The notes under the pieces are model-generated. The model saw only the letters and a list, made by a program, of their open reading frames with translations, ran no database searches and was not told where the DNA came from. Source: Obrimoposthia wandeli (lineage: Eukaryota). From it: a stretch of DNA of 64,000 nucleotides. The first letter of the stretch is position 1, and every line of letters begins with the position of its first letter. The stretch covers positions 186,001 through 250,000 of the forward strand of contig CDROCS010000358.1 of assembly GCA_977020255.1 (NCBI GenBank), in the 5' to 3' direction. Shown here piece by piece: positions 8,001 through 45,089 of this stretch. The translations under genes and the position numbers were made by a program.

Positions 8001-9110
8001 TTATTGTAATTATTATTCCTTGGTAGTGTATTATTACTTTGTCTATTCATTTTTTTCTACAAGTTTTGATTGTATGATTTTGGAGTCCACAATTCATGCA
8101 TTTTCGAAAAGATCTTTGTTTAAATTGTGAGTTTTTAAAATTTCTATTTGACTGATCTCTATAAAAATTATTAGTTGGTGGTCTAAATTGTTGAAGATTT
8201 TGAAAATTATATTGGGTTAAAATTCTGAGTTTGGTTGTAGTTTGGTGGTGTTTGTGGTCGTTATATTTTTTCAAAAGATAGTGCTGAAATCTCGGTTTGC
8301 TATAACATATTTAGTATTGCTTCTACTAGCTGAGCTTTTCCTATAGCTTGTTGAAAGTTTTCCACTTCTAGTAATCCCGGGTGATCTCTGATTTTATTAT
8401 TTAAACCATATAAGAACTGATTTAAAAATAATCATTCTCTTTGTGCTTCCTCAATTTTTGAAAATGATTATGAAGCTAATCGTCGCCATTCGTCTGCAAA
8501 AATGTTTGTGGGTTCTCCTATATGTTGTTCACGTTGTCTGAATTGATTTACATACATTTGTTCTGATTGTACTCCTAAATGTTCCCATGTGTCTTTTTGT
8601 TGCTCAGTTAATCCTCTATAAATAGTTAAGGCAGTACTCTTTAGATATGCCAGGAAAACTCTAAGTTTTTCTGGGTTTGTCCATTCAAATGCCTGAGCAA
8701 ATGAATCGTATATATTCAAGAATTCGGGCAAAGAAGATTTATTGCCATTAAAAGCGTCTAGTGGTACATTCAGTCTATGACCTGCCATCTGAAGTACTTC
8801 GTTTATTTGTTCGTTATTTATTTCTATGTTATGTGTTCTGGTAGTGCCACTGTTTCTGTTGTATCTGAAGAGTTGTCTGAGTCAGACGTTTGTGGTAATG
8901 ATAACTTTCTGTATCAAAAGTTAATGTTAGGTTTATGTCTGATTATTGTTTCAAATGTTTCGATTGTAAGAATGTTTGTTAAACTTGCTGAATCGCTATA
9001 AAATGTTTTATATTTGTTTTGAGAAAGTGATGGAGTTCAGGGAAAAAATCGTTTTGCTTATTTATTTTGTTAAATTAATATATGCAAATTTCTTGTTTCT
9101 TTGTGTTTTA
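5100..9110 (-). pseudogene. Degenerate, internally deleted copy of the Gag-glycoprotein-Pol Gypsy family
   Basis: Minus strand is collinear with 12240-20870. It shows gag (8468-8788, MAGHRLNVPLDAFNG), the signal peptide and LEVYDC glycoprotein start (about 7185-7480), the integrase C-terminus (about 6000-6520) and the post-integrase region; many stops and frameshifts. Confidence 0.85.
6717..7138. mobile_element. Candidate solo LTR of a different family, nested in the degenerate copy
   Basis: Termini TGTCAC...GTGACA, 422 bp, GC-richer than its flanks, minus-strand TATA-like ctataaatac; no matching TSD seen. Confidence 0.5.
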
Positions 9111-9252: not shown

Positions 9253-9283
<31 letters not shown>

Positions 9284-10253
9284 CTATACCTACCAAACTC
9301 ACTCTGTAGGCCTCCATATGAGAAACCTAAAGATATTTTTAAGAAAATCCCACCAAAAATAAATTCTATGGAACGTAGCCTAGATCTCATAAATACTTGA
9401 TAAATTCCATAGAATATATTTTACTTGGCTCTATACACTGCAAGAAATATAGAACGTCTTAATTCATTTCGTACTAAAGAATGTAAACTCTATTATAAGA
9501 TAATGTATAGTGAAATATAGTTTACTCATATATTTTTCATCGAAATCGTTCTGCAATATAACAATAAATTCTTCAAATGGCAACAAATACGTGAAGATAT
9601 AAAAATAACTTAAAATATGAGGACGTCATATATCGAATTTGAACAACGTTTAATTGGCATAGTGCTAAATTCAATTTTTAAAAATTTTATATTCAAAAAA
9701 AACTTTTTTCAAAAATTTCTCTGTGCAAAATATCATCTGCAATATAACTTATTTTAATGCAATAAATTACAAATGAATGTATTCTTGATATAAAATTTAT
9801 AATATATAAACATTAAATTCAATAAATTATTTATATGCAATTGTTTTAATCTTCCTCTTATAAATAATATATTTAAAATCCTTTAAATATATTTAATACA
9901 ATTGTCCGATTTAGTCTAATAAATAGTCACGATTGATTTTAAATTATAAAATCAAATTTGTGCTACAAAATATATGATTTTAATTGTAAACTATCGACGA
10001 ATACTCTAACCGTGTTATATTCAAAAAAATTAAATTAATTTTTTTGATATTGACTAAATGTTTATTTTAAAAGTTTTTTTTAATATTTCTAAACCACATT
10101 AATAAAATAATTAGTATCGTCTTTATAGTCTTTAAAAGAGTTTTCAATTTTTAAAATAAATAAATTTGTTAATGGAATTTTGTGCCATACAAATATTAAG
10201 TTTTGTACCACTGCTTAATATATTCATATTTTGTGCTTATATATTGTAATCCA
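9253..10253. repeat. Dispersed non-autonomous element with (CTAA)7 at one end, copy 1
   Basis: Highly similar to 31630-32453; both copies end at gtaatccac. Confidence 0.8.
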
Positions 10254-10525
10254 CAATTATAGCGCCCTTAATGGGTCTTACTTTTACCGTGCGATAAAGT
10301 TGTGTGTATGTCGATTTTATTTTCATGGAAATCTACACTTTTGCACTCGGTGCATTTCTATTTTGCATTACTGTGTTCGTTGGGCAATTTTATTATTCGG
10401 TCTAAATGGGATTCTAAAATCAACGGTTGAATTAAAACGGTGTTGTGCCATCCATCACAAATTGCCCTAGACTTGCTAATCGATGTTTTGTATTGCGTGA
10501 TTTTGCATTGATGTTATTTTTACCT

Positions 10526-10927
10526 TGTGTGACGATTGCTATTTATAGCAATCGTCGATTTGCCAGACCTGTGTGTTTGATTGGTCCCGGTCTGGCAACT
10601 TTATCTTGTTATCTCTCCCTGACATTTGGGCGATTGCTATTTATAGCAATCGTCGTTCGGATTTATTCTAGTGGAATTTTTAGACTTACAAAAATTTATC
10701 TGTATTTCAATTTCCTAAAAGAAGAATATATTATTTGATTTATTTGAATTTCCCAATTTTCTAAAAGAAGAACATATTATTTGATTTATTTGAATTTCCC
10801 GATTTTTCTAAAAGAAGAATATATTATTTGATTTATTTGAATTTCTCAATTTTCTAAAAGAAAAAACTGATTTTATTTAAAACTGTTCAAACTTCAATTA
10901 CCGCTCAGAAACTATTCAAATATAACA
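10526..10927 (+). repeat. 5' LTR (402 bp) containing a 43-bp tandem repeat
   Basis: Starts tgtgt, ends gaaactattcaaatataaca; shares blocks with 24101-24777. Confidence 0.8.
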
Positions 10928-10928: not shown

Positions 10929-10943
10929 TGGTGAGCTCGACTT
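10929..10943 (+). promoter_or_regulatory. Primer-binding-site-like sequence
   Basis: TGGTGAGCTCGACTT begins 1 nt after the LTR end; cognate tRNA not identified. Confidence 0.65.
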
Positions 10944-12574
10944 AGAGCACGATACGGAAATTAGACTACAGGTCATTTATTTATTTATTTTTGTATAATA
11001 ATATTTAGTTTATTGTATTAGTTTATTATTTAGTTTATAGTGTATTATTAAAAAGAAAATCGAATTGATTTTGTTTTTCTTACATTTGAGTTTTAGTTGT
11101 CCCTTTTTGACATTAAAGAATTATATTTATTTTACATTTATTTAACTTTGATAGGATTCATTTAGTTTCTCAAGTTTTAGCTGTAATTTATTTTTACATT
11201 TAATGTTCATATTTTTGTCTGTTGTAATAATTTAATTGAATTGTTAGTTATCCATTTGATTATTTTTATATACATAGCATTCTAATTTGCTTTAGTTTAT
11301 ATTTTATTACATAATTTGAATATACATAGATTCAAAATATTTCCTTTTGGGTTATTTAAACTCATTTAAAAAATTATCTTAGTTTTACAACTTTACAAAT
11401 ATTTATAATTTCAAAAACTTATAACATTTTATTTTTTGTGTAAATTTGTGATTCGTATAAAGTATCGGGAACTTTTATATTACCTTGATTGATATATTAG
11501 ATATAAAATACTAAAATAATATAGTTGAGGTGTTTGCAGCTGTGCGCACAAGCCTCGTAAGATTAAAAACATAATTTTGTTTCCGGAAACATAGTCGGGT
11601 CCTGTTATCTAATTTTCTTTTATAATTTGAGTCGTGTTGATTATTTTAATCATAAGTTATAGAAAATTTTGAAAAAATTTTAACATTTTCCTTTGAACCG
11701 GTTTACCAGTAGGAAATTCGTTTTTTGAGAACTATAAATTGGAGTGGATTTATCTATTAGAGGCGTAAAAGTAAAATAAATAACTAAAAAGATAATAAAA
11801 GTTAAAATAATCATATAAATATATTTTTGTATAAAAATAAAATTGATCAAAAAATTTAAAATTTTGTCGCAAATTGTCTTGTTTCCCAAGTTACGTCGAG
11901 TGCTATCATATAAAGACTATATACTGGTTGGCGGTGGTAGTGCTCAAAGTGATAAGGGACAGAGATTGTTGAGATAAATTTTTGAGTCTTGTTATTGTTC
12001 TAAAAAATTAAAAAACAAAATAAAATAAAACTTCGGAAAGATAAATTTTCTCCAGAGATTTTCAGAGAGCGTGTTTTTAATATTGATAAGAGAGTTTGAT
12101 TTTGAGATTGACTAAATAACTTTTACGAATTCCTCCGAAATATTTTTAGTTTCAGTACGCAGTACGCATTTTTCATTTGTGCAATATTTGATTTTGAAAC
12201 TTTAAATAAATTATTAATAACACAAACCCAAAAATCTATCACAAAAACAGACACACAAAATAAGTAAACAAAAACGTAGCGCTAGCCTTCACTGGAGAAG
12301 AATTCAAACAAGATTAGTTAGAACAGACTCCAGTGAAAAAACAATTCAAAGACCCAAATCACAAATCAGTTTTACAACAAATAACGATTTACTTACACAG
12401 ACTTCCCCACTCTCAGAACATCTGGACCTAGCTTTAACCTCAGATACAGAGAGTTTACCTTCACCACAAACATCTGACTCGGATAGTTCGTCAGAAATAA
12501 CGGAAGCAGTAGCCGTCCCAGAACCACCTATTGTACAGATAAACAACGAACAAATAATCGATCAACCTCAAATA

Positions 12575-14060
12575 ATGGCTGAACATAAATTAAATGTTCC
12601 TTTAGACGCTTTCAATGGCGATAAATCCTCATTACCCGAATTTTTAAATAGATTTGATTCATTTGCTCAAGCATTTGAATGGACTAATGAAGAGAAACTT
12701 AGGGTTTTTCCAGCGTATTTAAAAGGCACTGCCTTAACAATTTATAGAGGATTAAACAATGAACAAAAAGACACATGGGACCATTTAGTTCAGAATTTTC
12801 AAAATATGATTTTAGGAACCCAATCAGAGCAAAATTACTTAAATCAGTTTAGACAACGTGAGCAACATTTAGGAGAACCCACAAATATTTTTGCAATTGA
12901 ATTAAGACGTTTAGCCCTAAAATCATTCCCTGGAATTGAGGAAGTTTTAAGAGAGCGCTTACTGTTACATCAGTTTCTACATGGATTAAATAATAAAATC
13001 AAAAATCATCCAGCTCTACTAGAAGTAGAAAATTTTCAGCAAGCTGTAAATAAGGCTCAACTTGTAGAAACAAGATTAAACATGTTACAACAATCTGAGG
13101 TTTCAGCATTAACCTTTGAAAAAATACAAAGACCAACAACACCACCAAATTTCAATCAAACTCAAAACTATAACCCAAATACACAATCTAATTACCAAAG
13201 CCAACAACAATATACACCACCGACAAATAACTTTTATAGAAATCAAACAAACAGAAACTATACAGACTCACAAATTACACAAAGACCTTTCCAGAAATGT
13301 ACAAATTGTGGACTACAAAATCACACAATAGAGAATTGTTATAAAATAACCAACAACAAATTTTGTAGATTTTGTAAAAAAGACAATCATACTATTGAAA
13401 CTTGCCGAAAACTGTTATACAGACAAAGTAATAATATACAACCACAAAATAATAACTTTAACAATCCTAATAATAATTTCAAAAATACAAATAATAATTT
13501 TAGAAGCCCATATAATAATTTCAATAATCAAAATAATCAAGCTAAATATTTTAATACTAATACAAAATTTTGTAAAATTTGTAATATGAAAAATCACAAT
13601 ACTGATGAATGTAGCAAACTAAATACAATGATGAACCAATTTGGTAACACAACAATAAAACAACAACAACAACCACAACCACAGATTCAAAAAACAGTAC
13701 AGTTTAACAATCAAAATCAACAATATGCTTACAGAAACCCAATACATACTATTGAAAACACTGATATAAATCAGGAAACAGAAGAAGTTGCATTGATGAG
13801 ATTAAGACAACAAGAAATAGATAATCGCTATAAAGAAACACATCAGCAATACCAAAACAATGAGCAAAACACAAATAGTACCAACTCTCAATCTGAATTC
13901 GGAGAAATATTTAGAAACGGTTGTCTAACATTAGAAAAAAGAACACAAATAAGTACAAAAATAAATCAAACCACTCAAACACAAGATAAAAAATCGAAAA
14001 ATAAAAATAAACGAAAATCACCAAAAAATAGTAAAAATTCAAATCTTAAAAATACATATA
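12575..14060 (+). CDS. gag: Gag: capsid domain plus three CCHC zinc knuckles and Asn/Gln-rich linkers
   Basis: AFNGD..LPEFLNRF..AQAFEW..EKL, FRQREQ; knuckles CTNCGLQNHTIENC, CRFCKKDNHTIETC, CKICNMKNHNTDEC. Confidence 0.9.
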
Positions 14061-14068
14061 ATTTTAAC

Positions 14069-15950
14069 AAAATCATCCAGAATTTATGGAAAATAATTCA
14101 AATAATATTTATGATATGTATAATTACAAATATAATAAAACCTATAAATGCTCTTGAAGCATATGATTGTTCAAAATATAGTATTCAAAATAAATATTCA
14201 CTAATGGATTTACAACAATGCGCCGACGCAGATCCAAATGAAGTAAAAGTTAAAACCACCAAGTTATTTCATGTATACCAGGAAACAGATTACATAAATA
14301 CAGAAGTTTTCGAATGTAGAGTACATGTGGAAACATTCATAACATATTGCGGACAACACAGCCATAATTCAATTGTTAAGCCAGCATTAGGAAAAACACC
14401 AATAATTGTGGACGCGTTAAATTGTAAAGATGCTTTTGCAACAGGCGAACTGAGAATAGATAGAGAAATAAAAGTAAAAGCAATAAAAAACAAAATAATA
14501 CAACAAATGATTACGGTGGTAGGAACTATCAAATCTGACGGAGAATGCACAACAGGATCATACGTCGTAATGGGAGTTAAACAAAGTGGTTTAGTAGTTA
14601 TAAAAAACTTTGAGGTAGAACTAAGAACATTTAAAGCAACATTTGATCCATCTACAAATACCATGGTGACTATGCCTTTTTGTGCAGCAAATATCGGATA
14701 TTGTAACACAGGATCTTCAATTTTATACTATAAGGTAAAAACAGACCAATGTAAATTAATACTACTAAAATCAGAAAATTTCCAAATAATTCAAGGTCAA
14801 AGATTCAAAGATGATCCAGAGCTAGATCAACGAATTCCAAAAAATATACTTAAAAATATAGAACTAGAAAAATACAAAAAACATCAACTCCAACTATTTT
14901 AATGTCAACTGAACAAGGTTCAGGTATGCGATTTATTAAAAGAAAGAGGAATCCCGATGTGGACACTCTATTTATACAACTAATTATAAAGGAATATATC
15001 TAAGTAAAGAAAAAATTTATAATGCAAAAACTACACCAACAAAATTTGATATAAAAAATTACGATTATTTCAATAATAAATTAGATAATTTTTATCACAA
15101 AGGATTAATGACAATAGAAGCTATTTATAGAGAAACAATAATGAATGACTGTAAATTAAATCAAGAAATTTTGAAAACAAAACTAGCAATTATTGCTACA
15201 AATCCAGAATTAATAACACCATTATTACCGTTACCAGATGGTACTTTCGGAAGAGTAATGGGAGAGGTACTATATACGTATCAATGCCAAAAAGTAATAG
15301 TTAATATAAGAAATCACAATAAATGTACCAAAGAATTGCCAATTTCATACAAAAATCATTCATTATTTGTAGAACCAATCACCAGAATAATACTTTTTAA
15401 CACATTCAGCATAAAAGAAATAAACTGTTCAAACATAATGGCACCTCATTATAAAATTTCAAAAGATATCTGGATAACATTACCAAGAAGAGACATAGTT
15501 GCTCAACCACTAAAACTACAATTAACTAATCTAAAAAATGACATAGAAATAAATCCAGACAATGAACTAAATACAAAAGGCATTTACATACAAGAAGATA
15601 TAGATAAATTAAGAAAAGAAATTTTATTTCCTCAAATAAGATCACGAATTTTAACACAAATCATAGAAAGATCAGTACCAGACGGAATTAGCCGTCCTGA
15701 TTATGATTTATTACTTTCTCCAAACCATTACATAAAAGCTACAAAAAATACAATGTCAAAAATATGGGGAAAATTTTTAATATTTGGACAAGCATTTTCT
15801 GGACTTGTAGGAATATATGCACTACAAATATGCTTTAAAATACTATTGAGTCAAATTTTATCCACATACTATATTTATAAAGTTGGAGGATTAACATGGA
15901 AACTAATATTAGGATGTTTTCCATTTTTGGAAAAATTTCTTATATTTAAT
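14069..15950 (+). pseudogene. env: Chuvirus-like (class III) envelope glycoprotein in frame with Gag; two frameshifts near 14880 and 14940
   Basis: Internal signal peptide, then LEAYDC...QC, ECRVH...YCGQHSHNS, CGHSIYTTN, NDCKLNQEIL, GRVMGEVLYTYQC, and a C-terminal hydrophobic region WGKFLIFGQAFSGLVGIY; pattern recalled for chuviral G. Confidence 0.8.
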
Positions 15951-16139
15951 CATCTTCAAAATACTGTAAACGCATTATCAAACGAAATGCGAGAAACAAA
16001 TTTACAAAAAATAGTAGACAATAAAAATAAAGAGAATACAGAATCTGCACAATACCCCGATTTAGAAAGATATAAAGAAGAAATAATAGTTCAAAAATCA
16101 ACTGCACCAACAATATATACTATAAATCAAATGGATAAT

Positions 16140-16793
16140 GATAGACGACCTTATGTAAAAGTTGAAATAAATGAGTATAAATTAAAAGCTTTAATTGACA
16201 CAGGATCAAGCGTAACAGTTTTGGACGAGTCTTTCTTAAAACCACACCAAATATTACTACTTCTCACAGATAATAGTCAAATAACAGCAGCAAACGGTCA
16301 ACCCGTAAATATTATTGGTAAATTAGATTGTATTTTTAAAATAGGAGATAAATTTATAAAAATACCTACTAGAATAATGAAAAATTGTCCATGTCAGATG
16401 ATAATAGGAATAGATACATTGAGGAAATTAGGAAACAATTTTCACTTCGACTTTGAGAAAAATCAAATTAAAGACATTTACAGACCAAACGCTAAAAGCG
16501 AATACGAATTGGAAATAAAAGGAGATATCATCCTTCAACCTAGAACAGAAACAATATTACAATTAGAAACTAACATAGTTACAGAAAAAGACATCTTATT
16601 CGAACCTTATAAATATCAACAGGAAACATTAAATTACGTTCTACCAAATATAATTTGTAAAATAAGAAATAACACAATACCTATCAGAATACTAAATGGA
16701 GACATAAACGAGATTCATCTAAAAGTAGGAACACGCCTTGGAAAAATAAGTGTTATAGAGAATATAGAATTAATTAATAATGAAAAAATATAA
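16140..16793 (+). CDS. Aspartic protease and post-protease domain, in the same ORF (15108-16793) as the glycoprotein C-terminus
   Basis: RPYVKVEI...ALIDTGSSVTVL (DTG at 16197), IIGID; one in-frame TAA at 16791-16793 separates it from RT. Confidence 0.9.
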   Translation, partial: DRRPYVKVEINEYKLKALIDTGSSVTVLDESFLKPHQILLLLTDNSQITAANGQPVNIIGKLDCIFKIGDKFIKIPTRIMKNCPCQMIIGIDTLRKLGNNFHFDFEKNQIKDIYRPNAKSEYELEIKGDIILQPRTETILQLETNIVTEKDILFEPYKYQQETLNYVLPNIICKIRNNTIPIRILNGDINEIHLKVGTRLGKISVIENIELINNEKI

Positions 16794-18200
16794 GACAATT
16801 CCACCGTAAAATTTGAAAATATTAGATTAAATGATTATGAGAAATCAAAACTAAAATCATTGATGGAGAAATATGACGTGATTTTTTGCAAAAATGAATA
16901 TGACCTAGGACGAACAGATTTAATTAAACATAACCTTCCGTTAACTATTAATACAGCAATCAAACAACGACCTTACCGTATCCCATACGCTTACAGAGAA
17001 GAAGCTCAAAGACAGGTAAAAGGAATGTTAGAGAATAATATCATAAGAAGAAGTTTTTCAGCATGGACATCTCCGGTTGTTTTGATAAAAAGAAAGATGG
17101 TTCACTAAGATTTTGCGTAGATTACAGAAAATTAAACGAGATCACACATAAAGACACATATCCGCTTCCAAGAATCGATGAAATCTTAGATAAACTAAAA
17201 AATGCAAAAATATTTACAACCTTAGATTTACAAAGTGGATATTGGCAGATAGAAATAGATGAATCAGATAAAGAAAAACAGCATTCTCAACAGGAGAAGG
17301 ATTATACGAATTTAACGTTTTACCTTTTGGATTAACAGGTGCTCCAGCAACATTTCAGAGGTGCATGAGCCACATTTTAATGGACGCCGATCATGTCATG
17401 GTTTATATCGACAATATTCTAATTTTTTCAAAAAATTTTGAAGAACATTTAAAAGATTTAGAAAATGTATTTCTTAGATTAAAAATAGCAGGTTTAAAAT
17501 TAAAACCAAAAAAGTGTGAATGGATGAAAGACAAAGTGAATTATCTAGGTCACGCAGTATCAGCAAAAGGAATTCAACCAGATGAAAGTAATATAGAAAA
17601 AATAAAGAATTTTCCAATTCCAAAAACAGTAAAAAATATACAAGAATTTTTAGGACTTGCAGGATATTATCGTCGATTTATCAGAAACTTTGCACAAATA
17701 GCAACACCATTAAACAAACTTATTAAAAAGGATGAAAATTTTGAATGGGAAACGGAACAACAAGAGTCATACGAGTACTTAAAACAAAAATTGATAGAAA
17801 AACCTATATTGATATATCCTAATTTCAACAACTCGTTTCTAGTAATGACTGACGCAAGTGGATACGCGTTAGGAGCAGTACTAGGACAACAGGATAATAA
17901 TGAAAAAGATCATGTGATAGCGTACGCAAGCAGAGGTCTTAAAAACACGAAATAAATATTCAAACAAAAGAAAGGAATGCCCCCGCTATTTGTTTCGCAA
18001 TGGAACATTTTAAACATTACTTATTAGGTCGAAAAGTTCACGTTTATACTGATCAAAGACCATTACAGTGGCTACTAAATCATAAAGATACAACATCTAG
18101 ATTAATGAGATGGGCGTTAATTCTCCAAAAATATGATATTGAAATTAAATATAGAAAAGGTAAATCAAACGCCAATGCAGATTGCCTATCTAGAATAAGA
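16794..18200 (+). pseudogene. pol: Reverse transcriptase and RNase H, frameshifted
   Basis: [47 protein letters not shown] in place of YxDD (17404-17415), TDASGYALGAVL, ANADCLSR. Confidence 0.92.
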
Positions 18201-18479
18201 GAAGAAGTAAATGTAATAAATTCCAATGACACCGAATTAAATATTTTTACAATAATCAAGGCTCGATATGATGATAAAGTAATCACCGATCTTCAAAGCA
18301 AAGATACGGAATTACAACAAATAATTAAGTATATCACCATCAATCAAGTTCCAACAGATGAAAAATTAAGAAAACATTTAAAAAAAACTCATGAATCTCG
18401 CTATAAATTCAGTAACAATATTTTACATTATTTAAACGATAAAAATCTGTACTCACTAGTTATACCTAAAGAAATACAA

Positions 18480-19560
18480 TGACAATTACTCCTTCAATAT
18501 CATAACGGAGCTTTAGGAGGACATCTTTCAACAAAAAAGACACATTCAAGATTAAATTTAAAATATTATTGGATTGATATGAAAGAAGATGTAAAAAATT
18601 GGTGTAATACTTGTGAAATATGTCTTAAAAGAAAAAACACCTTACGTACCACAAAGATACCTTTAAAACCAATACCGTATCCATCGGCCCCCATGGAAAC
18701 TGTTGCCATGGATGTAATGGGGCCATTACCTGAAACACCCCGAGGAAATCGATATATAATAGTATTTTCAGATTATTTTACAAGATGGCCAGAGGCTTTT
18801 CCAACACATGATCATAAGGCTGAAACCATCGCGAAGGTTTTAGTCGAAAAAATTATTTTTACTTTCGGTGCACCCCGAAAGTTATTAACCGACAAAGGTC
18901 CTGAATTTATAAATAATGTATTAGCATCAATAGCTGAAATCTTTCACATAAAAAAGATCAATACAACACCATATCACCCTCAAACCGACGGATTAGTAGA
19001 AAGATTTAATAGAATTCTCGAAGATATGATGGCATCATATACAAACAACAACCAAACAGATTGGGATTTGCACATACCCCCATGCCTTTTTGCATATAGA
19101 ACATCAGTACATGCATCTACAGGAGAAACACCTTTTTACCTTATGTTCCTCAGAGATCCGCAAATGCCTATTGACCTAACATTACTACAACCTACTACAC
19201 AATACCTAGAAATACCTGAATACAAAATAGAAATTAGAGAAAGAATAAAACTAGCATTTGAAAAGGCTAAATTATTTGTAAAAAACATACAAGAAAATTA
19301 CAAAGAATATTATGATAGAAGAACTAAGCCATCAAATATAAAAAGCGGAAGTAAAGTGATGATTCACAATCCACAAATTAATGTAGGATTGTCACACAAA
19401 TTATCAAAACCATACAAAGGACCATATACAGTTATTAGTACCAATGGAACTAACATAACAGCTAAACTCGACAATGAACTAAAATCAAAAGAAATAAGAA
19501 CACACATAAATAGATGTCGACAAGTACCAGAAGAGAATACAACAGTAAAAAGCCATAAAT
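18480..19560 (+). pseudogene. Integrase (HHCC zinc finger, DDE core, GPY motif)
   Basis: H..ALGGH...WCNTCEIC; AMDVMGP, LTDKGPEF, GLVERFN; KPYKGPY; a stop lies immediately upstream. Confidence 0.92.
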
Positions 19561-19619
19561 ATAATTTGAGATCAAACACAAAAAATACAGTTTTACAAAT
19601 GTTACCAATACAAGATATA

Positions 19620-20930
19620 CAGAGAAAAAATATTAAAAACAAAAAATCTAAATGGAATAAGGCAATAGTTATATCAATAAAGGAATTTTCAAAAATTTTA
19701 ATAATATTCGCAATTTATCTCTTCATAAGTAAAAACGTGCAAGGAGCAAATGCTACCAAACTAAATGATAAAAAACTAACTATAAAAAATGTTATAAATA
19801 AACATGACTCGACAACACATCTTATAAAAAATTTTGGTTTAATTACGATAATACCAGAAATCACATCTATAAAGTTAAAAATCTCGCTCTTTATAAACAA
19901 AACTGAAATATACAAATTACACAAAAGACAGAAAACAAAACATAACAATAATAGGAATAAAATCACGAAAATATACAATACCATTCTTAAGAGATGAAAC
20001 ACAATATGAAATTAAAATAAAATCAAATACACAAAACATTACACTTTATCAAAGAACTATAGAAACTCACATATACCTAGCATCAATATTAGAAACAACA
20101 GCGAAATATATATCAAAACATAAAATAATGATAAAATGGGAATTTCAACTAAAAATAGACGACTTAGATAAAGCCCTCATTAGAATTAGATATAGAGGAC
20201 ATAATATTAATTTTTGGAAAAACTCAGAAAAACAATTAGAAAAAACACAAACTAAAACAAATTTAACCATAGAAAATATAAGATATCCAGAGAGAATAAT
20301 AATACAATATAGAGAATGTGTAATCACAAATAAACCAATGATGTATAGAAGTTGGGGACACATTTTGAATACTTACAAAAACATAACTACTTTAGAAACA
20401 ATAGGAAAAAAGATATCAAAAATGTTTCAACCAACTCTTTTTGCGGGAGTTGGCTAATAATAAAAATAAAAGAACCTATATTAAAATCAACAAAAGTAAT
20501 GAAAATATATTTAACACAATATACAACAAAAATATTTAAGAAAATATCATCAATCATTTCTAAAGAAAACATACAAAACCAGTCAACCTTTTTAAAAAAT
20601 ACAATAAATTCATCAAAATCGATGAACTTAAAACATATAATATTTTTTAGTCAACGAAATCATTCACAAAACATATATCATACAGAATTTAAGATAATAA
20701 TAGCAATAATAATTGAAATATTTAACATTTTAATAAAAGTAATAATAAAAATAAAAACTTTTAAAAGAATTAAAACTAAAAAATCATTTCACTTAAACAA
20801 ACTGTATGGACCACCAGGTCCACTCATAACATCCCTAATACCAAGTGGTACAAATTCATCCAATACATCAATAGATACGGTAATCAAGAACTATAAACAC
20901 AAAGAGAAAAACAACACTGATTTGTAAAAA
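19620..20930 (+). pseudogene. Post-integrase region beginning with a second signal-peptide-like segment; fragmented
   Basis: Basic stretch then KILIIFAIYLFISKNVQG in frame with integrase; homologous sequence in the minus-strand copy at 5100-5950. Confidence 0.45.
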
Positions 20931-21306: not shown

Positions 21307-21739
21307 TAAAATCCCCAGTGAGTAAAATAAAATATAAAATAAAAGAAAATTGAGAATGAGTTTGGGCTTTTGGCATGTTTTTGGAGAGGAAATGCGTTTA
21401 TGAATGGGTATTAATATTCATTAACTTTAGTTGAAATAGTAATAATAAAATTAAGAATAGGTAAAAAATGAATATACCAGTATAGATATGTATATATTGA
21501 TATTGATAACACCAGTAATAAGAATATATATATTAAAAAATGAAAAAATCATATTTTATTTATATACCTTGTTTGTTTAAACTTGTTATATAAAGACAAA
21601 AACGATTTACAGATTTTTGATTAACAAAAAGAGACAAAATAACTAACAGGAACATTTCATTTGATAGACAGTTGACAATTTTTATATTTGCATGTAAAAG
21701 ATCAACAATTTTTTTTTACTATATCTGTATACCCTACAG

Positions 21740-22876
21740 ATGGAACCCACAAGCACGAATCCTCATTTGAACTGGCAGGTGGTGCCGCGGGGAAAGAGAG
21801 AGAAGTCGGTCCAGTTAGCAGAACAACGTCCAGAAATGGCGAAAATGGCTAAGTTCCTTTATGGAAAAATAAGACAGTTTGGAACAAGGTATTTCCATAA
21901 CCATTACGGAATAAAGCTTTTTGACAATCAGACCCAGCTTCCAAATAGCATTAAGTTAAGAGACACCCCAAGACAAAGTATAATTCTCAACATAAATAGT
22001 AAAAAGCCAACGGAAAAAAGACTGTTTGAGTTGATGAATTTCTTACCAATATGCACGGACATTGAGATTCACGTAGCAAAAGGCCGTGGATTTTTAAAAC
22101 ACAGGAAAAGCAAACATTTTTCTATCCTTCTCCTGCAAAACCACTCTTACAGATTAATGAGACATCAAATAACTCCCGATTTGATGATTCGTTTTTCGGG
22201 TGGAAATAACATATTTTTCATGGAGCAAAATGTGCGACCTAATCCCGTTCAAGTCTGCCATTTGAATATCATACCCTACAATCCTCAAATATTTTTTGTC
22301 GATTGTGAAATGGTAGTAAAAATGAACAAACAACCCACCCTAGCTAGCATTACAATAATGAATAGAAGCGGACAGATCGTGTTGGATACGAAATGCAATA
22401 GCAGAGACAGAATCAGGAATTATGTGACAAGAATAACGGGCCTTAATGAACGGAAGTTAAGAAACCAACCTGATTCTGTCGAAGTGTTAGAACGTGTCCA
22501 ATCCTTGCTAAGAGACAATATTTTCGTAGGGACGGGAATATCCAACGATCTCAAAGTTTTAGGATTACAAAAAAACGATTTTTCGCACACGGTTGATCTA
22601 GGGGCAACACAAACTATTCAAATGGAAATGAACCGTAGAGAACAAGCCGGACTTGCTCGAATGGTTTCGTGGTATTTCAATAAAGAAATACAAAAGAATA
22701 CCCACTCTAGCCTCATAGACACGCAATGGACCCGAAAAATTTTCCTCCATAAAGAACAAGAACTGCTAAAAGAATGTGGTTTGACCGTCTCTTTTCCCCG
22801 CGTAACCAACGCTAATTTTCCTGTCTTAACCGAGGTTATAGACCTCACCTCCTCTGATTCTGAGGACAACATTTAA
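21740..22876 (+). CDS. DEDDh 3'-5' exonuclease (REX4/ISG20-like), 378 aa
   Basis: ExoI FVDCEMV, NYVTRITGL, ExoII FVGTGISNDLKVL, ExoIII HSSLIDT; uninterrupted ORF. Confidence 0.88.
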   Translation: MEPTSTNPHLNWQVVPRGKREKSVQLAEQRPEMAKMAKFLYGKIRQFGTRYFHNHYGIKLFDNQTQLPNSIKLRDTPRQSIILNINSKKPTEKRLFELMNFLPICTDIEIHVAKGRGFLKHRKSKHFSILLLQNHSYRLMRHQITPDLMIRFSGGNNIFFMEQNVRPNPVQVCHLNIIPYNPQIFFVDCEMVVKMNKQPTLASITIMNRSGQIVLDTKCNSRDRIRNYVTRITGLNERKLRNQPDSVEVLERVQSLLRDNIFVGTGISNDLKVLGLQKNDFSHTVDLGATQTIQMEMNRREQAGLARMVSWYFNKEIQKNTHSSLIDTQWTRKIFLHKEQELLKECGLTVSFPRVTNANFPVLTEVIDLTSSDSEDNI

Positions 22877-23254
22877 AGTGGTAGGAAAATTTATGATTTT
22901 AGAAAATGTTTCGAGAAAAATCAGAGTGAACAGAAAATAAAAAAAAGTAAACACTACTAGAGTAATCGTGTTTATGGCTGATTTTTATCGAAAACATAAA
23001 AATAATTTTATAGCATGAATGAATCCATATTTTAAATGATGACAATTTTTTTTAACTATGTTTAACAATGATTATTTTAACAATTAAACAAACATCTTTG
23101 TTAAATATAAAACGTCAGAGGTCTGACTTTGTATACTCCCATAGGATTGTTGGGTCTTTAATTAAAATTAATTAATTAAATTACAGTCAATTTAAATTGA
23201 CATTTTTTAAAATTATCTAAAGTGCCCACAATTAGGGAGGTTTATCAAATTTCA

Positions 23255-23306
23255 GCCTCCGACGGGTTGTTAGCCCGTTTCGCCCTGCCGGGCTCATCAG
23301 GAAGGC
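23255..23306 (-). ncRNA. Type I hammerhead ribozyme
   Basis: Minus strand: GCCUUC-CUGAUGA-GCCC(GGCA)GGGC-GAAA-CGGG(CUAACAA)CCCG-UC-GGAGGC. All core nucleotides and three helices present; GUC cleavage triplet. Confidence 0.9.
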
Positions 23307-23329
23307 GGCGAAAAAAGCGGTTGATAAAA

Positions 23330-24015
23330 GGGATTCTTATCATAAAAATATTACCGCCCAGTAGCAGCGACCTATTCCCTTCATCATCATCCGGAGAGGC
23401 AACAAACTTCAATCATCCCATCTCGGAAGCAGTTGCCTCCCTGACAACAAATTTCCCGCCTGCTCAACCGCCCCTGTGTATCCTTCACTACCCTATTTCT
23501 ACTACGTGGCGGAGATGTCCGGCATCTCACTGTTCAACAGCTACCTCATGGCCTACCCTATCTGCATGGCGGTCTTGGAGCTTAGCTTATTCAGTTGCCT
23601 TAACATGTTCGCCATCAACCTGGGCATCGTCATCTCTCTTTTCCTCCTCTTCCCGCACAACTCTTGGAGATGGCAGGCGAGACCCCGACAGCATGCCTAA
23701 CTTTGACAATAATGTATGCAACAGCAGTCTCTCCGGTCAACGGCTCAGACAGCGACACTGACCGGCTGCCATAATCCTGGTGGTCCAGCGGTGACTGCAT
23801 TGAACAACTGTACAATCCGGCCATGAATCTACACACAAAAACTTTGGTGCTGTCTTTAGTGTCGGTGTGTGGTGTGTATATCCTCTCTCCTCTCTCACAA
23901 TCTCTATATTATTTTTCGTACAATCACTGTTTTTCCCTCTCAAAATTATCCAGTGTGAATGTGTGTTGACTGAAATCTCTCCTGTACTGTCATTTCCCCC
24001 TTTTCTCCACAACAT
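23330..24015 (-). pseudogene. Decayed GC-rich antisense ORF with a Cys/His cluster
   Basis: One frame continues through isolated TGA/TAG stops: LCVDSWPDCTVVQCSHRW...GQCRCL..., EEEEREMTMPRLMANMLRQL. Confidence 0.4.
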
Positions 24016-24088
24016 AGTCCATCATACCATGCAATAAGACAGTGTTGAGATGACCAGCGATGTAGAGGATTGTAATATGTGGACTGTT

Positions 24089-24097
24089 AAGAGAAGG
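24089..24097 (+). promoter_or_regulatory. Polypurine tract
   Basis: aagagaagg 3 nt upstream of the 3' LTR start. Confidence 0.6.
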
Positions 24098-24100
24098 CTA

Positions 24101-24777
24101 TGTGTAAAGATCACGGATTATTAATGTTGCAGCTTCTTCCTTACACATGTGAATGTGATTGTGTGTTGATACTTCATACCTGGACCTGTGTGTCTGATTG
24201 GTCCCGGTCTGCCAACTTTATCAACTTTCTCTCCCTCAATGGACATCGTCGATTTAGATGCCCATTTGACATTTGGACGATTGCTATTTATAGCAATCGT
24301 CGATTGGATTTAGATCAGTCAATTCTCCTTATTACAAATTTGTTGTCTTTTCAGTTTTCATTATCACACAAATTATTTTATGAATATATTTCTAAAAGAA
24401 GAACAAATTATTTTATGATCTAAGAATACATTATTGGAAACTATTCAAATATAACATTCAGTTTTCATTATCACACAAATTAATTTATGAATATATTTCT
24501 AAAATAAGAACAAATTATTTTATGATCTAAGAATACATTATTGGAAACTATTCAAATATAACATTCAGTTTTCATTATCACACAAATTAATTTATGAATA
24601 TATTTCTAAAAGAAGAACAAATTATTTTATGATCTAAGAATACATTATTGGAAACTATTCAAATATAACATTCAGTTTTCATTATCACACAAATTATTTT
24701 ATGAATATATTTCTAAAAGAAGAACAAATTATTTTATGATCTAAGAATACATTATTGGAAACTAATCAAATATAACA
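24101..24777 (+). repeat. 3' LTR including a 4 x 107 bp tandem array (24350-24777)
   Basis: Starts tgtgt, shares gacctgtgtg..tgattggtcccggtct and the 26-bp palindrome with the 5' LTR, ends aaatataaca. Confidence 0.8.
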
Positions 24778-26270: not shown

Positions 26271-27320
26271 ATTTCGCATTGATTAAAAATTGTAGAGTGT
26301 AACCATATCACCTAAATAGTTCTTTAGTTAATAAAATAGTTTATTTAAGAGTACGCTACAATTGTGATTAATAATAAATATCGTGAATTTAAACTTTAGT
26401 ACTGACCGTCCCTAACTATTCAGAGGGTTACAGTCGGAACTACTTGAGTACGGTTTAGTTTTTGCAAATTTCTGGTCATGGTTTGGCGCGTCTATTATTG
26501 AAACTAAAATCAAATTCGGTCTTATACAATCAGCAACACGACAATAGTTTTAAGGAATTTCGAGTTATCATTCATCAACTGGCTTCAATAATTTATTTGA
26601 ATATTTTTCTATTACTTTATATACGTGTATTTTATAAGTCATATTTGACGTATATTAGAGTAAAGCCGTGTAAAAAATTTCTAAATAAACTTTTAAGTTG
26701 ATTGAATCTTTTGATTAAAGTTTGGTAAATTCTTCAGCCTACTTGTCATTAAATCAAAAATTAAATTTAAAAAATTGTAAGGTTTTATTTCTCAAAGATT
26801 TTCATGCAAATGATCTTTAATTGTTCCATATTACTTTTATAAAAAATACAATTTACTACGAATTTATTAATAAATAAGAAGTATTATAAAAATATTTAAA
26901 TGAACTCTTATTAAATATATTTAAAATTTTAAAAATGTCTAATAAAATAATTTAACTATTTAAAATTATTATAAAATATAGAAATAAAACAACCAATAAT
27001 AATATTTTAAAGTTAAAATAATTAGTACTACATTTTATTTATCTAAGTTATAATATACTACTTTTATTTTTAGTGAGTGTAATTGTTATTGATATTATTT
27101 TTTGATTAATTATAATAATTGTTATATTTCAATTTTAAAGTTTACATTTCAAAGTTAGACTTTTTCTGAAAATCTAAAGTTAGTTATTTTGTCAATAGTT
27201 ATTTCGACATAGAATCGGAATATTAGGTTATTTTTAATTATCCAATTTATTCCCATTTGCTTTATTTATTTGTTATTCCTTCTAAATGTTTTGTTAATTT
27301 CGATATTCCAATTTCAGAAT

Positions 27321-28579
27321 ATGGACGATCTCTGGACTCACCTCTCCGATAATGGACTACACACAAACGTCGTAAATATCCCTAACAGTTGTTTGTGCAT
27401 GTTATGCAACTCGATCATGCGACATCCGGTCTCTACCAAATGTGGATGCGTCTTTTGTGAGCACTGCATACGTGACTATCTTCTCGATGACCGCAAGCCG
27501 TGTCCGGGATGCCTCAAAGAAAACGATATCGCACAAATTGAATACACCAACGACATCACAGAGTGCAAGACGTCCAGTAGGGAAATCTTGAGACTTATCA
27601 CGGTGTGTCCTCTCGATGGATGTGAGGAGTCATTTGAGTTGCGAGCGCTGCTAGAACATCTCATCTCGTGCTCCATGATGAAAAATGGCTGCATGTTCAA
27701 GTCAATCGGATGTAGCACCGGTAATATGAACAGTACACAGTTGGAGGTGCATTTGAGTGAAGAATCAATAGAGCACTATAAACTAATTGTTGAAGCGTTA
27801 TGTGAGTTGAAGAACGGTTATGAAGCAATGCAGGTGGAGCGGAAATCTGTGAATGCTGTGAGGATTGAGATGTCTCAGATGAAGGAGGACTTTGCCGTGC
27901 TGAGGGCTGAGATGATGACAGCGATTGGGATTATGGCGGGAGATTTGAATGCGATCAAGGCCGAGAATGTGGAACAAAGTCAGAATCTTATGGAGGCAAT
28001 GAGGAAGGATATAAATGAAATTAAAATGGAATCAGATTTAAAAGAAAGAGAATTTAAGAATTTGAGAACAGAATTAGATAGCCTTAAAGAACAAAATATC
28101 GAATTGAATCAGGTTCTTCTGAACCACGAATCTGTTTTAGAGAATGTGAAGGAAGAAAAGGAAAATTCTTCTGAGAGGACAAATGTATTGGAAACAAAGC
28201 TCCATGAAGTCGTCTTGATAAGTGAAGCGATGAAATGCGAATTAGAGATTCTAAGAAAGGAAATGGTCGATTTGAAAACTTCGTTGACAAAAAGTGAGGT
28301 AAAGGCCGTGGCAGATGAAGCCTTTCCAGAGTGGAACCAAAGAATGGTAAGCTGAGTTTTCTTATATCTAGAATCTTCGCGAGGCATTCAAATATTTAGA
28401 TATTCAATTAGTTTAAGCTAAATTACAAATGTGCTAAATCTTTTGTAGAATTCTTGGTATTCGAACTATTTAAAGCTAACTGTATTATACATTTTGTATT
28501 CCAGGAGAAGCAATTACAGCAAGGAGGTGACCAAGCGAATGATAAAACGATCCAAATTAGGCGCAGAGCTGAATCGATG
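27321..28579 (+). CDS. RING / TRAF-type zinc finger / coiled-coil protein, paralog 1 (exons 27321-28346, 28505-28579; 3' end unresolved)
   Basis: C-x2-C-x11-C-x-C-x2-C-x2-C-x11-C-x2-C RING, CP..GC...L.EHL..C...C.F...GC, long heptad region; GT-AG phase-0 junction. Confidence 0.8.
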
Positions 28580-30400: not shown

Positions 30401-31629
30401 CTTGTTTTCGTTTTAATTTATCGCTTATTTAAAAACGCACTAAAATATCACTTTCATCGGATGTATTATAAGAGCAACTCTAAATGAAAAAGATCGAGAC
30501 AAATTTGACAAATATGACGCAGAAAATTTTAAACAGGCTTTGCGTTACCGAAAATAAAGTTTGAAAGATACTCTGATCAAATTTCTTCTAAAGTAGTTCA
30601 AATAATCAAATCAAACAAATAAACGTATGAATTATTACCATTCTATAATATCAGTATTTGTGACTTCTACGACAGTCAATCGAGAACAATTTTGAAAGTT
30701 TTCCCCAGAATTTGATTATCATTGAGTACTGGACCACTAGCTAGATGCTAACTTTTCTTATTTTTGCGAAAGTCAAACAAATGAAGAACATCTTGTCCTG
30801 TGGGTTTTCGATCTTTTAATTCAGTAGTCTGTAAATTGCTCCCACATTGTGTCATACTTTTTGCCAGCTTTCATCGCATTAGTACCTTTAATAATGTGTT
30901 AAAATACTTAATATTCTAATAACATAATATCATTTTTCATGAAACATCAAAGGTTTTGAAGCATATGCAATCACTTTTTTGTTTATAATTTCATCCAGTT
31001 GGCTCAATACTGCTCAATCGCACTAAAACTTACGACTATTTCAAATATTCAGTTTTCAGTTTAATCTGGAAAAATCTAATATAGGAGCTGTTCTTAATTT
31101 TTCTTGAGAAGTTCAAATCTTGTTTTACAATCCAGTGAACATTGTAATTTTACCCGCCTATTGTAGTGGAGCTACAATTTTGGCATAATCTTTAATCAAT
31201 CGATGATAATAGTTTGTCATTCATAGGATTGATCTTAGTTTCCCGCTTCAATCTGGTTCTTTGAAATTTATAATTTCGCTGACTTTCGGTTAATTGGTAT
31301 TCCGCTTTCTGTTATGGTATGACCTAGGAATTTTATCAGCTTCTGGCCGATGAAGCATTTATAAGGGTTTATTTTGAGGCCTGCATCTGCAATTCTTTTG
31401 AATACTTCCATTAAAAGTTTATGATGTTCTTTTTGTTGTTATTATAAACAAGGATAACATCCAGATACGCGATTGTTCCATTGAACAGCAAAACAACACC
31501 CCACTAGTTTCGGATATTCAAGCCAATATTGTACACAATTATGAACAAAGCATAAATCACCAAACACAAATGAAGAAGTCGATTCAGAAATTCTTCAGAT
31601 CAATGAAATCAGATAAGAAATTAAGACCA

Positions 31630-32453
31630 CTAACTACTATACCTACCAAACTCACTCTGTAGGCCTCCATATGAGAAACCTAAAGATATTTTTTAGAAAA
31701 TCCCACCAAATAAATTCTATGGAACGTGGCCTAGATCTCATAAATACTTGATAAATTCCATAAAATATATTTTACTTGGCTCTATACACTGCAAGAAATA
31801 TAGAACGGCTTAATTCATTTCGTGCTAAAGGATGTAAACTCTATTATAAGATAATGTATAGTGAAATAGTTCACTCATATATTATTCATCGAAATCGTTC
31901 TGCAATATAACAATAAATTCTTCAAATGACAACAAATACGTGAACATATTTTTTAAAAAATACAAATGAATATATTCTTGAGATAAAATTTATAATATAT
32001 AAATATTAAATCCCACAAATTATTTATATGCAATTGTTTTAATCTTCCTCCTATAAACTTTATATTTAAATACTTTTAAATATATTTCATACAATTGTCC
32101 GATTTAGTCTAATAAATAGCAATACGTCACAATTGATTTTAAATTATAAAATCCAATTTGTGCTACAAAAAATATGATTTTAATTGTAAACTATCGACGA
32201 TTTCTTTAACCGCGTTATATTCAAAATAATTAAATAACTTATTTATATATTTACTAAATGTTTCTTTAAAAAGGTTTTTTTAATATTTCCAAACAACAAT
32301 ATTAAAATAATTAGATCGTCGTTTTAGTCTCTAAAAGCGTTTTTAATTTTTTTAAAAATAAACTTTTTTAATGAAATTTTGTGCCTTACAAATATTAAGT
32401 TTTGTATCATTGCTTAATATATTCATATTTTGTGCTCATATATTGTAATCCAC
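31630..32453. repeat. Dispersed non-autonomous element, copy 2
   Basis: Matches 9277-10253 with an internal deletion of about 150 bp. Confidence 0.8.
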
Positions 32454-33154
32454 TTTGGTCAAAATAATCTATTGAACTTTCATGTCATAATTTAATTTCA
32501 AATCATAAAAAAAAATCCTATTATATAATTTTTGAGTATTAAACCGGTCTATAATATTTAATAATCATTTAGTAAATAAGAAAACAAATCATACAGTTCG
32601 ACTTTTAAATATTTCCTAAATTTAACAAATTTAATATCACACTTCATGAAAAACTTGCAAACAATATTCAATTAGATTTCATTATCAATGATAACTATGT
32701 CTGATTCTTTGATACAATTAAATTTCCAAAGTAAATAAATTCACTTGAGTGCATTTATAACATTTATATAACATCAGTTTTTCTTATTATTTGCAATGCA
32801 AACTTATTTCTTTTACTGAATCGATAATCTGATTTGGCTAAACATTATTAAAAAGTTTATTTTTATTTCTTATCATTCTTAACTTTCAGTAACTCGAAAT
32901 ATTTAATAAACCAATAAAATATCCCACTGCCCACACTACAAAAATCTTTTTTTTCAAAATAAATTTATATTTTGAATAAATTAATTCTGCTTTTAATGTA
33001 TCTTCAATTAGGGTATATGTTAATTACTGACTAATTATTTGAACTGGTTTTAAACTAATATTTAAATGTACAATTTAACCTATATTTGTTAATCTAATTT
33101 TTCGATTTATACAGAAAATTTTACTATATTTTTACAATATTTATTTCTTTTAAT

Positions 33155-34338
33155 ATGAATATAATATGGAAATATTTAAAAGACCACAATTTAGAAATTG
33201 ATGTGTCGCATGTATCTCCATATGTAAAGTGCTCAATGTGTTCCTTAATTCTGAGACAGCCCATGGTGGCTGTTTGTGGTTGCGTGTTCTGTGACGAGTG
33301 CATCCACAAATATCTCGGGGAAGACTTGAAGCCGTGCCCAGGTTGTATCATGGATAACATCGCAACTGAAATAAGATACGACCGCGATATAGTGCAATGT
33401 AGGAAGTCCACGAGGGAAATAAACAAGCTTGTTGTCACTTGCCCGCACGATGGATGCGAAGAGAAATGCGAGTTGCTGCAGCTTATGGAGCACATTGTAT
33501 CTTGTCCTGTGACAAAGTTGGGCTGCATTTTCAGCAGCGTTGGATGTATGAGTGCGCAGTTTAATTCGCTGGAGCTGAATAAGCATCTGGATGAAGGAAG
33601 AATGGCGCATTATCGGATTATTGTCGAGACTCTGTGTCTGCTCAAGAACGGTTTCGAGTCCCTGCAGGCGGAGCGAGGAGACGAGTCTGTCATCAGAAAT
33701 GAGACGGATAAGCTGAAAGAAGACCACACAGAGTTGAGAGTTGCGTGTGTAGCGAGAGATAACGAATCCAAGGCGGCGATTGATGCGATTGTGGCGGATG
33801 TGGCGGCTCTGAGAGCGCAGAATGTGGAGACGAAGAAGAAATTAGAGCTGAGAGAGGCAGAAATGAAGAAGGATAAAGAAGAATTCTTGGGAGAAATTGA
33901 ACAGTTGCAGAAGAAAGTTGAGAGATTGAGAGAGGATAATGGGAAAATGAGTCAAACAATCAAAGAGAACAAAGATAATATCGATGGTGTGCGGAGGGAA
34001 ATGAAGGAAGATATAAAGAGGGTTGCAGAATCAAATTCTGAGGATAATACGAAATGGCAGACGAAGATTGACGAGAAGAAATCGGACTCAGAGAAAATGA
34101 GAAAGGAAATTGGCGAATTAAGAGCGACTCTGGTGACAAAGGCCGATATGAAAACGGCGCTCGATGAATATTCGCTAGAAGTGGCTCAATTGAAGAAGGA
34201 AATAGACCGAGTTAAAGTAATTATTCCCCTCGCTCTATTTATGACGCATTGCAGGAGGAAGTGGCGCAGCAGAAGAAAGATTCAGAGAAGGAGAGAGCGA
34301 TGACGACGAGTGGGGTGGAGAAGACAGCTGGAGCAGAG
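33155..34338 (+). CDS. RING / TRAF-type zinc finger / coiled-coil protein, paralog 2 (exons 33155-34216, 34255-34338; 3' end unresolved)
   Basis: CSMC...CGCVFCDEC...CPGC with the same spacing as paralog 1; 38-nt GT-AG intron at 34217-34254. Confidence 0.8.
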
Positions 34339-44395: not shown

Positions 44396-44527
44396 ATTTT
44401 TGATTATTATTTTGTCTTTATTGATTATGTTATAAAATTGTCTAAATACTACCTCGTCATTTTAATAAATTTTTGATTAATATTTTTTCGTTATAAACAA
44501 CGGAATTTTCTACAAATTTGGGTAATT

Positions 44528-45016: not shown

Positions 45017-45089
45017 ACAATTCTTCTAATTGGAGGAATTCATTATTAAAATTTTAGAGTTATTTACAAATCAGCCTTTTGATTGGAGG

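Follow-up and report, generated by a model that had tools for sequence, protein, structure and literature searches.

A type I hammerhead ribozyme antisense to the genes of an env-bearing Ty3/gypsy LTR retrotransposon in Obrimoposthia wandeli

The window analysed here, a 64,000-nucleotide stretch of Obrimoposthia wandeli DNA, contains an LTR retrotransposon whose genes and primer-binding site (PBS) all lie on the plus strand, opposite to the hammerhead ribozyme in its 3' LTR. The element begins with a truncated 5' LTR (10253..10927, plus strand) of a different U3 type and without the ribozyme-bearing end; it matches a related copy (L151) at 94.8% over 10253-10657. The ribozyme model run on the window returned one ribozyme only, so none is present in this truncated LTR. 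One base past the LTR end lies the PBS (10929..10941, plus strand), a conserved TGG-initiated motif. In a related copy (L243, 120-145) the PBS is longer, and over 20 nt of it could pair with the 3' end of a tRNA, T-arm/T-loop and CCA included; a search of the genome for the gene of the priming tRNA did not find it.

The polyprotein region (12221..20927, plus strand) was recovered in pieces with Pfam, as the window copy is broken by stops and frameshifts. Its order is an unannotated N-terminus, a Monjiviricetes/gB-type fusion glycoprotein, protease (PR), reverse transcriptase (RT), RNase H, integrase (IN) and an unannotated C-terminus. The fusion glycoprotein (PF24664) is followed by the protease in a single frame, which is a GAG-ENV-POL errantivirus-type layout in the operational sense given in the available text of PMC13524379. 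Pfam returned no match for the approximately 600 residues before env, where gag would be expected. Env+pol proteins with the same layout and 61-68% identity over RT-RNase H were found (P0076, P0088, P0094, P0095, P0109, P0110, P0115 and P0116). These relatives come from metagenome-type sources; one is filed under a bacterial MAG, and P0110 ends in an Ig domain.

Downstream of pol is a gene for a DEDDh (REXO4-like) exonuclease (21740..22876, plus strand; PF00929), with motifs that align to RNA exonuclease 4 (31%) and a stop codon 384 nt from the predicted ribozyme cut. A first look at the genome gave 5,884 candidates for this gene, and the databases a single, distant relative. Its ATG directly follows a splice-acceptor-like CTACAG (window 21725-21742), which suggests that the exonuclease may be expressed from a spliced subgenomic mRNA. 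A canonical polypurine tract is missing in front of the 3' LTR; 12/12 3' LTRs have just a short purine-rich stretch there, and plus-strand priming would therefore be unusual. Some 30 nt ahead of the 3' LTR (23113-23147) is a short palindrome that is found again in a diverged subfamily (L077). The element is an env-before-pol Ty3/gypsy (Metaviridae-type) LTR retrotransposon with an exonuclease, as indicated by TG...CA LTRs with short target site duplications (TSDs), the PR-RT-RNase H-IN order and a tRNA-type PBS. The sequence-only reading had taken the host for a protein-coding Gypsy element, with which the Pfam domain order agrees. Full-length copies span 12-15 kb from LTR to LTR.

Several other features share the window. 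An inverted, decayed related element on the minus strand (approximately 5100-8800) is 70-81% complementary to 12500-20900. Polinton/Maverick-like frames occupy 44477-48849 (plus strand) and 49804-54923 (minus strand), with Pfam matches to an A32-like ATPase (PF04665) and a TBP-like domain (PF00352); their 880-aa, 396-aa and 174-aa frames are putatively DNA polymerase B, capsid and integrase. Two RING/zf-TRAF coiled-coil (TRAF-like) genes lie at 27213-28355 and 33098-34303, and near them is a direct repeat of about 1 kb (9276-10254 and 31629-32453). This repeat was considered as an LTR pair, and it belongs to something other than the present element.

The 3' LTR (23148..24777, plus strand) is 1,630 bp long and bounded by TG...CA; the copies reach no further than 23146-23148, where unrelated flanks begin, and have TSDs of 4 bp. 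From left to right it consists of a conserved end module (23148..23309, plus strand), made up of the attachment end and the ribozyme and common to otherwise different U3 types, a hypervariable U3 zone, and a 107-bp tandem repeat of varying copy number at the right end (24350..24777, plus strand). The ribozyme (23255..23306, minus strand) corresponds to nt 108-159 of the LTR. The sequence-only reading had put it just downstream of an antisense ORF starting beside the 3' LTR; the 3' LTR in fact begins at 23148 and so encloses the ribozyme.

With the motif and its surroundings (181 nt) as query, the host genome yielded 2,485 candidates, of which the 40 scored are 99-100% identical to the query. 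All 30 loci fetched have the TG start at the equivalent of 23148, preceded by internal sequence of the element in 12 and by unrelated flanks in 18. Among 63 LTR starts other than those of 3' LTRs, 25 belong to ribozyme-bearing solo LTRs (885-1,540 bp) with matching 4-bp TSDs. Since these solo LTRs carry the ribozyme between their TSDs, it is a part of the LTR and not a separate insertion with a TSD of its own, an outcome that had been named in advance as a ground for rejection. The ribozyme is found in 5', 3' and solo LTRs, and full-length copies have it in both LTRs, which removes the idea that it is a feature of the 3' end only. The exact 22-mer just past the cut occurs 603 times in the genome; the family is very abundant, with at least 600 LTRs. 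Of 13 pairs of neighbouring LTRs, ten can be aligned along 850 nt or more at 98.5-99.7% identity, which indicates that the family is young.

The motif itself is a genuine type I hammerhead, as first drawn. Read along the minus strand (23306-23255), its order is stem I, CUGAUGA, stem II, GAAA, stem III, GUC and stem I. Stem I has 6 bp including one G-U pair, stem II has 4 bp and a GGCA loop, and stem III has 4 bp plus the A15.1-U16.1 pair and a 7-nt loop. The type I core (CUGANGA, GAAA and UH at a junction of three helices, of which helix I is open) is thus present in the window copy, and the predicted cut falls at 23261/23260, 113 nt inside the LTR end. Core, GUC triplet, stems, GGCA loop and predicted cut all agree with the earlier description of a complete hammerhead on the antisense strand. 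Loop II has A as its last base and U occupies position 1.7, a candidate tertiary contact.

The assignment is supported by the fold, by a descriptor scan and by the alignment of relatives. The three-way junction is the minimum-energy fold of the motif (-20.7 kcal/mol), at a stability that is ordinary when taken alone (z -1.41; 15/200 shuffles as good). The bare core pattern occurs at chance level in the window (4 matches vs 3.97 expected). The full descriptor has the ribozyme as its sole match in the 64-kb window, and block-shuffled windows matched it in 5/200 cases at loose criteria and in 0/200 at strict criteria. In the Rfam check that had been proposed, the best match to the window copy is Hammerhead_HH9 (18.7 bits, E 0.12), which is below the cut-off, and no model matched within the window at gathering score.

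We next turn to conservation within the family. Sixty copies were fetched from the first 100 listed of the 603 matches to the 22-mer. The descriptor is passed by 54/60 of these copies, which were selected with a 22-mer spanning half of stem I, namely its 3' strand; absence from other copies, likewise named beforehand as a reason to reject the motif, is thus not what is seen. The common variants are at N7 (38 copies) and a swap of C-G to U-A in stem II (20 copies), and N7 is the single position of the hammerhead core that is left free. In 53/60 copies similarity to the window ends at 23309-23322, 3-16 nt before stem I, and in 7 it continues; no copy (0/60) diverges between stem I and the LTR end.

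More distant relatives extend this pattern. A genome search with Rfam RF00163 gave 30 matches, of which 6, relatives of the window copy, are above the cut-off, and 16 of the 30 have a motif like the LTR end 100-260 nt downstream, against a background of 9.7%. A hand-picked alignment of 28 rows combines 24 of these matches with four family members, leaving out two duplicates, three sequences of another family and one degenerate one. Paired cells make up 91.6% of the stem positions in this alignment, compared with 81.1% in shuffled and 32-50% in slid controls. It contains 52 double changes over 9/15 pairs in all three stems, equalled by 0/500 shuffles, a significance that is overstated and partly circular in that the rows are related and the matches were found by a model that rewards pairing. 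Column identity is 0.98 in the core, 0.78 in the stems and 0.51 in the flanks, and the core is intact in 25/28 rows. The terminal A of loop II is present in 28/28 and U1.7 in 25/28, the contact itself being a candidate one; pairs of this type form an activity-raising trans-Hoogsteen contact according to the available text of PMC9217987. G-U cells occur in all three stems. Three of 16 diverged stretches have a match to the exonuclease (35-44% identity), and the ribozyme lies downstream of it on the opposite strand in 3/3. The excess of pairing, the double changes and a core identity far above that of the flanks indicate that purifying selection acts on the fold of the ribozyme and not on sequence alone. 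The check on conservation and covariation proposed in the sequence-only reading is in this way borne out by double changes in every stem, among rows that are related and model-found.

We further note some departures from this arrangement. A core change is common to both LTRs of one element (L167/L168), from which it follows that the ribozyme is dispensable in cis for one round. In L215, one ribozyme (3188-3263) and an env gene lying 2 kb further downstream share a strand, probably as the result of a nested LTR. A second hammerhead family, in which helix III is weak and which is not associated with the present LTR end, was seen in L073, L074 and L089 (approximately 1490-1555); L074 adjoins sequence that is 75% like window 46173-46828.

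Upstream of the ribozyme, in its own direction of reading, the U3 is a GC-rich, hypervariable mosaic of captured sense-strand fragments (23310..24230, plus strand), recognised from clusters, frames and host matches. At 300 nt of overlap, this zone falls into 20 clusters made of shuffled segments. The decayed antisense ORF that had been described here as converging on the exonuclease does not hold up: the longest antisense frame has 94 codons (p=0.17), and the zone consists of host mRNA in the sense orientation. Frames at p<=0.05 relative to shuffles occur in the antisense direction in 3/20 representative LTR types and in the sense direction in 7/20. Among 299 non-redundant U3 frames from 90 LTRs, Pfam gave four matches (a C-type lectin, CBS twice and WD40, all sense) and left 295 blank; it missed the pieces of aconitase and SLC46 among these frames. 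The window's own piece is a 152-bp host exon (23497..23648, plus strand) of an SLC46-like MFS transporter, 99.3% identical to an exon on host contig G000:C613; the closest relative of that exon is a planarian SLC46 transporter (49%). Another U3 type bears the end of a mitochondrial aconitase (E 1e-27); across 437 bp it matches the host gene's final exon and 3' UTR at 95.7% identity. This piece retains 5-6 bases of the preceding exon, which indicates that it derives from a spliced mRNA. All five identifiable kinds of captured sequence (SLC46, aconitase, CBS, C-type lectin and WD40) are sense to the element. A search for the host source of the CBS fragment did not find it; five of the places fetched are LTR copies and two are distant CBS matches. 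Searches of PDB and the ESM Atlas with the window's U3 frame gave weak leads only. Mosaic U3s are seen in the window (23310-24230) and in L015, L018, L025, L122, L137, L149, L156 and L240-L242. Being assembled from host mRNA in this way gives the ribozyme-bearing LTR a second unusual trait, which is a finding in itself. In the assembly at large, many intronless aconitase-family genes lie on G000 contigs such as C253, C372, C506 and C3444, which suggests the presence of bacterial contigs.

The hypervariable zone ends near a palindrome (24276..24301) in which the minus strand contains TATAAATA and the plus strand TATTTATA, and which may act as a bidirectional core promoter. The TATA palindrome is present in 50/60 copies, the nearest one lying 388-1015 nt from the cut. 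Several subfamilies have a hairpin before the ribozyme.

Two rearranged copies have breakpoints at the predicted cut. On contig C703, a tandem array contains five junctions, which represent one event, at which the 3' LTR stops at the equivalent of 23261/23260 and is joined to host flank with one or two extra bases. Each 2,969-bp unit (L101, L103) consists of the exonuclease gene, an LTR end bearing a single ribozyme, and host flank of 1,040 bp. The array was probably produced by amplification at the DNA level, though its geometry is retrozyme-like. On C908, a deletion with 4-nt microhomology runs from 50 nt past the first base of the TATA to exactly 23260. Among 30 loci chosen by the exonuclease alone, two of the five private breakpoints within 1,500 nt fall at the cut, with P = 4e-4 for a 9-nt window and P = 3e-3 when nine recurrent subfamily boundaries are counted, both being post hoc values for two events. 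Copies that end at the cut from the 5' side were looked for and none were found. These breakpoints may be fossil hints of cleavage; hairpins in DNA or in an RNA template can attract breaks without any cleavage.

The position and strand of the ribozyme, its conservation and covariation, and its presence in both LTRs and in solo LTRs are the observations that any account of its function has to accommodate. We lean, by a modest degree, towards the reading that the ribozyme is kept to destabilise antisense RNA and so to limit the triggers of silencing. Such an antisense self-destruct signal is suggested by the ribozyme being the last thing that an antisense transcript would meet before the internal region, by a U3 that is reshuffled up to the ribozyme and never into it, by the retention of strand and place in subfamilies whose exonucleases are 35-44% identical, and by the two independently rearranged copies (C703 and C908) that break at the cut. 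A hammerhead predicted to be catalytically competent would here be built permanently into the LTR at its U3 end. Antisense RNA would arise from the palindromic TATA of the LTR, or from transcription entering from a host gene or small-RNA locus, and would be cut 113 nt before it leaves the LTR. The upstream piece would consist of U3, ending in a cyclic phosphate and lacking poly(A), and the downstream piece would be uncapped with a 5'-OH; both would be destabilised. The downstream piece would be antisense to exonuclease, pol and env when produced from the 3' LTR, or to host flank when produced from the 5' LTR. The element would thereby limit both dsRNA and the antisense precursors of siRNA or piRNA directed at its coding regions, a benefit that would be long-term and not needed in each transposition. 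In Drosophila, an antisense insertion in a host transcript is enough to set off piRNA immunity, as stated in the available text of PMC13226689. Counting against this reading, cutting an RNA does not by itself stop the polymerase. The earlier proposal that the ribozyme ends or stops an LTR-driven antisense RNA survives in part: it fits the anatomy, but there is no antisense ORF and the ribozyme is not confined to the 3' end.

A wider proposal, that the LTR is a two-part counter-defence against small-RNA immunity, is rather doubtful when all its parts are taken jointly. When the element lands in antisense orientation within a host transcript or piRNA cluster, the precursor would be cut before it reaches exonuclease, pol and env. 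Guides made from the U3 would be subfamily-specific and, through the captured mRNA pieces, would target essential genes of the host itself. The cleaved RNA may in addition promote the reshuffling of the U3.

Other functions can be proposed for the same anatomy. The RNA upstream of the cut, 0.4-1 kb from TATA to cut and antisense to the U3 with its captured host pieces, might itself be the functional product, pairing either with the U3 of genomic RNA, where it would cause the template switches that give the mosaic, or with host mRNAs. The predicted RNA and the hypervariable zone do coincide, several subfamilies carry the hairpin before the ribozyme, and the C908 deletion removes almost exactly the span from TATA to cut; with 5/5 identifiable captured kinds in the sense orientation, the RNA would be antisense to host mRNAs. 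The limits of the zone are, however, explained equally well by two needed elements around tolerant DNA, and template switching onto co-packaged mRNA yields sense orientation anyway, according to the available part of PMC5131818. The captured genes also look unrelated, and no retrocopy was found with an end at the cut. We regard a functional upstream product as unlikely. That the region is kept for a plus-strand RNA or DNA structure, serving strand transfer, priming or the integration end and remaining uncleaved in vivo, would accord with the missing canonical polypurine tract and with the conservation of the whole 160-nt end module. The unpaired core bases and the loop-II A and U1.7 are nevertheless conserved far above stems and flanks, and the G-U pairs of the minus strand become A-C mismatches on the plus strand, which leaves a purely structural role improbable.

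It might also be supposed that antisense RNA is cut at both LTRs in the manner of retrozymes, giving a circle of about 13-14 kb with a role in replication or persistence. Both LTRs bear the ribozyme, as in plant retrozymes, and the repeat units of the C703 array start at the cut; this polarity, however, can neither bind the tRNA primer nor encode the proteins, and the circles described in the available portions of PMC7761336 and PMC4918200 are below 1 kb and have the PBS-bearing polarity. We consider such a circle highly improbable. There is scarcely any likelihood that the ribozyme is a mere passenger, whether a captured retrozyme or Penelope fragment or a separate insertion, even though the U3 demonstrably captures foreign RNA and a second, unrelated hammerhead family (L073, L074, L089) exists in the genome. 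The ribozyme has no TSD of its own, is antisense where the captured pieces are sense, and was never displaced in 60 copies; the compensatory changes across subfamilies with exonucleases 35-44% identical have largely refuted this origin. All further explanations jointly carry a very small probability.

If the preferred reading, destabilisation of antisense RNA, is true, it would extend self-cleaving RNAs to a retrovirus-like lineage and give them a new job, the destruction of antisense RNA. It would bear on how high-copy elements escape the piRNA trap, a question that this one genome makes testable, since it contains hundreds of nearly identical copies, some with an intact core and others with natural damage to it.

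The known systems are compared here as they appear in the available text of each cited source. Self-cleaving ribozymes are listed there in R2, L1Tc, RTE, schistosome SINEs, Penelope, Terminons and retrozymes (PMC6765202, PMC7761336, PMC7229834, PMC4209133, PMC8501958), and those of R2, L1Tc, RTE, Perere-3, Penelope and retrozymes process the sense RNA of their own element (PMC6765202, PMC8501958). A search of the main texts of the open literature did not find a hammerhead in an autonomous LTR retrotransposon. Scans with the ribozyme pattern beyond this genome gave 0 viral matches and one unrelated-looking metagenome match.

The plant LTR retrozymes (Cervera et al. 2016, PMC4918200; PMC7761336) resemble the present element in having a hammerhead in both LTRs, as well as 4-bp TSDs, a PBS and a link to Ty3/gypsy machinery (PMC4918200). 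They are non-coding, about 1 kb long, and carry a type III hammerhead on the PBS-bearing strand (PMC4918200, PMC7761336), whereas the ribozyme described here is of type I, antisense, and housed in a protein-coding element of 14-15 kb. The coding internal region and a ribozyme opposite to the PBS strand rule out that this is itself an LTR retrozyme. The metazoan non-LTR retrozymes are similar in that their type I hammerheads, found in animal genomes, are canonical and form a stable helix III, but they are tandem repeats of 150-400 bp without LTR, PBS or ORFs (PMC7229834). Penelope-like elements and Terminons likewise combine a type I hammerhead in terminal repeats with a coding retroelement, and Terminons bear DEDD exonucleases too (PMC4209133, PMC6431247, PMC7761336). 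Their hammerheads are minimal, without a stable helix III, and the elements are of non-LTR type (PMC4209133, PMC6431247, PMC7761336); here we find a full helix III, TG...CA LTRs, the gypsy pol order and an integrase. A Penelope-like identity (PLE RT, GIY-YIG, pseudo-LTRs) is ruled out by the gypsy-type RT, RNase H and DDE integrase.

The other traits of the element have counterparts of their own. GAG-ENV-POL Ty3/gypsy elements with a gB-type env in Platyhelminthes, Nematoda and Bryozoa have the glycoprotein before and in frame with protease-pol, as here, and the word ribozyme occurs 0 times in the available text of that paper (PMC13524379). The planarian Burro has env in the same position (PMC6431247). 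The present element is about half of Burro's size, with an exonuclease ORF after pol, and is not Burro (>30 kb, with a polyprotein of about 4,900 aa and MATH/BIR/ankyrin/BCL2 domains), since it spans 12-15 kb and Pfam detects no such domains. The bdelloid Vesta/Juno LTR retrotransposons also have an extra 3'-5' exonuclease between pol and the 3' LTR; theirs is a DEDDy ORF3, whereas here it is DEDDh/REXO4-like and accompanied by env, and the accessible text of the rotifer paper makes no mention of ribozymes (PMC5408684). LTR-mediated capture of mRNA (Tan et al. 2016, PMC5131818) gives partial, spliced, sense pieces with short-homology joins, as seen here, but those retrocopies replace internal ORFs, while the mosaic described above lies within U3 and is copied into both LTRs. 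The family is in addition one from which ribozyme-bearing LTRs, those of retrozymes for instance, may have been derived. Set beside these systems, the class of the ribozyme is known, whereas its host element, its strand and its likely job appear not to have been known before.
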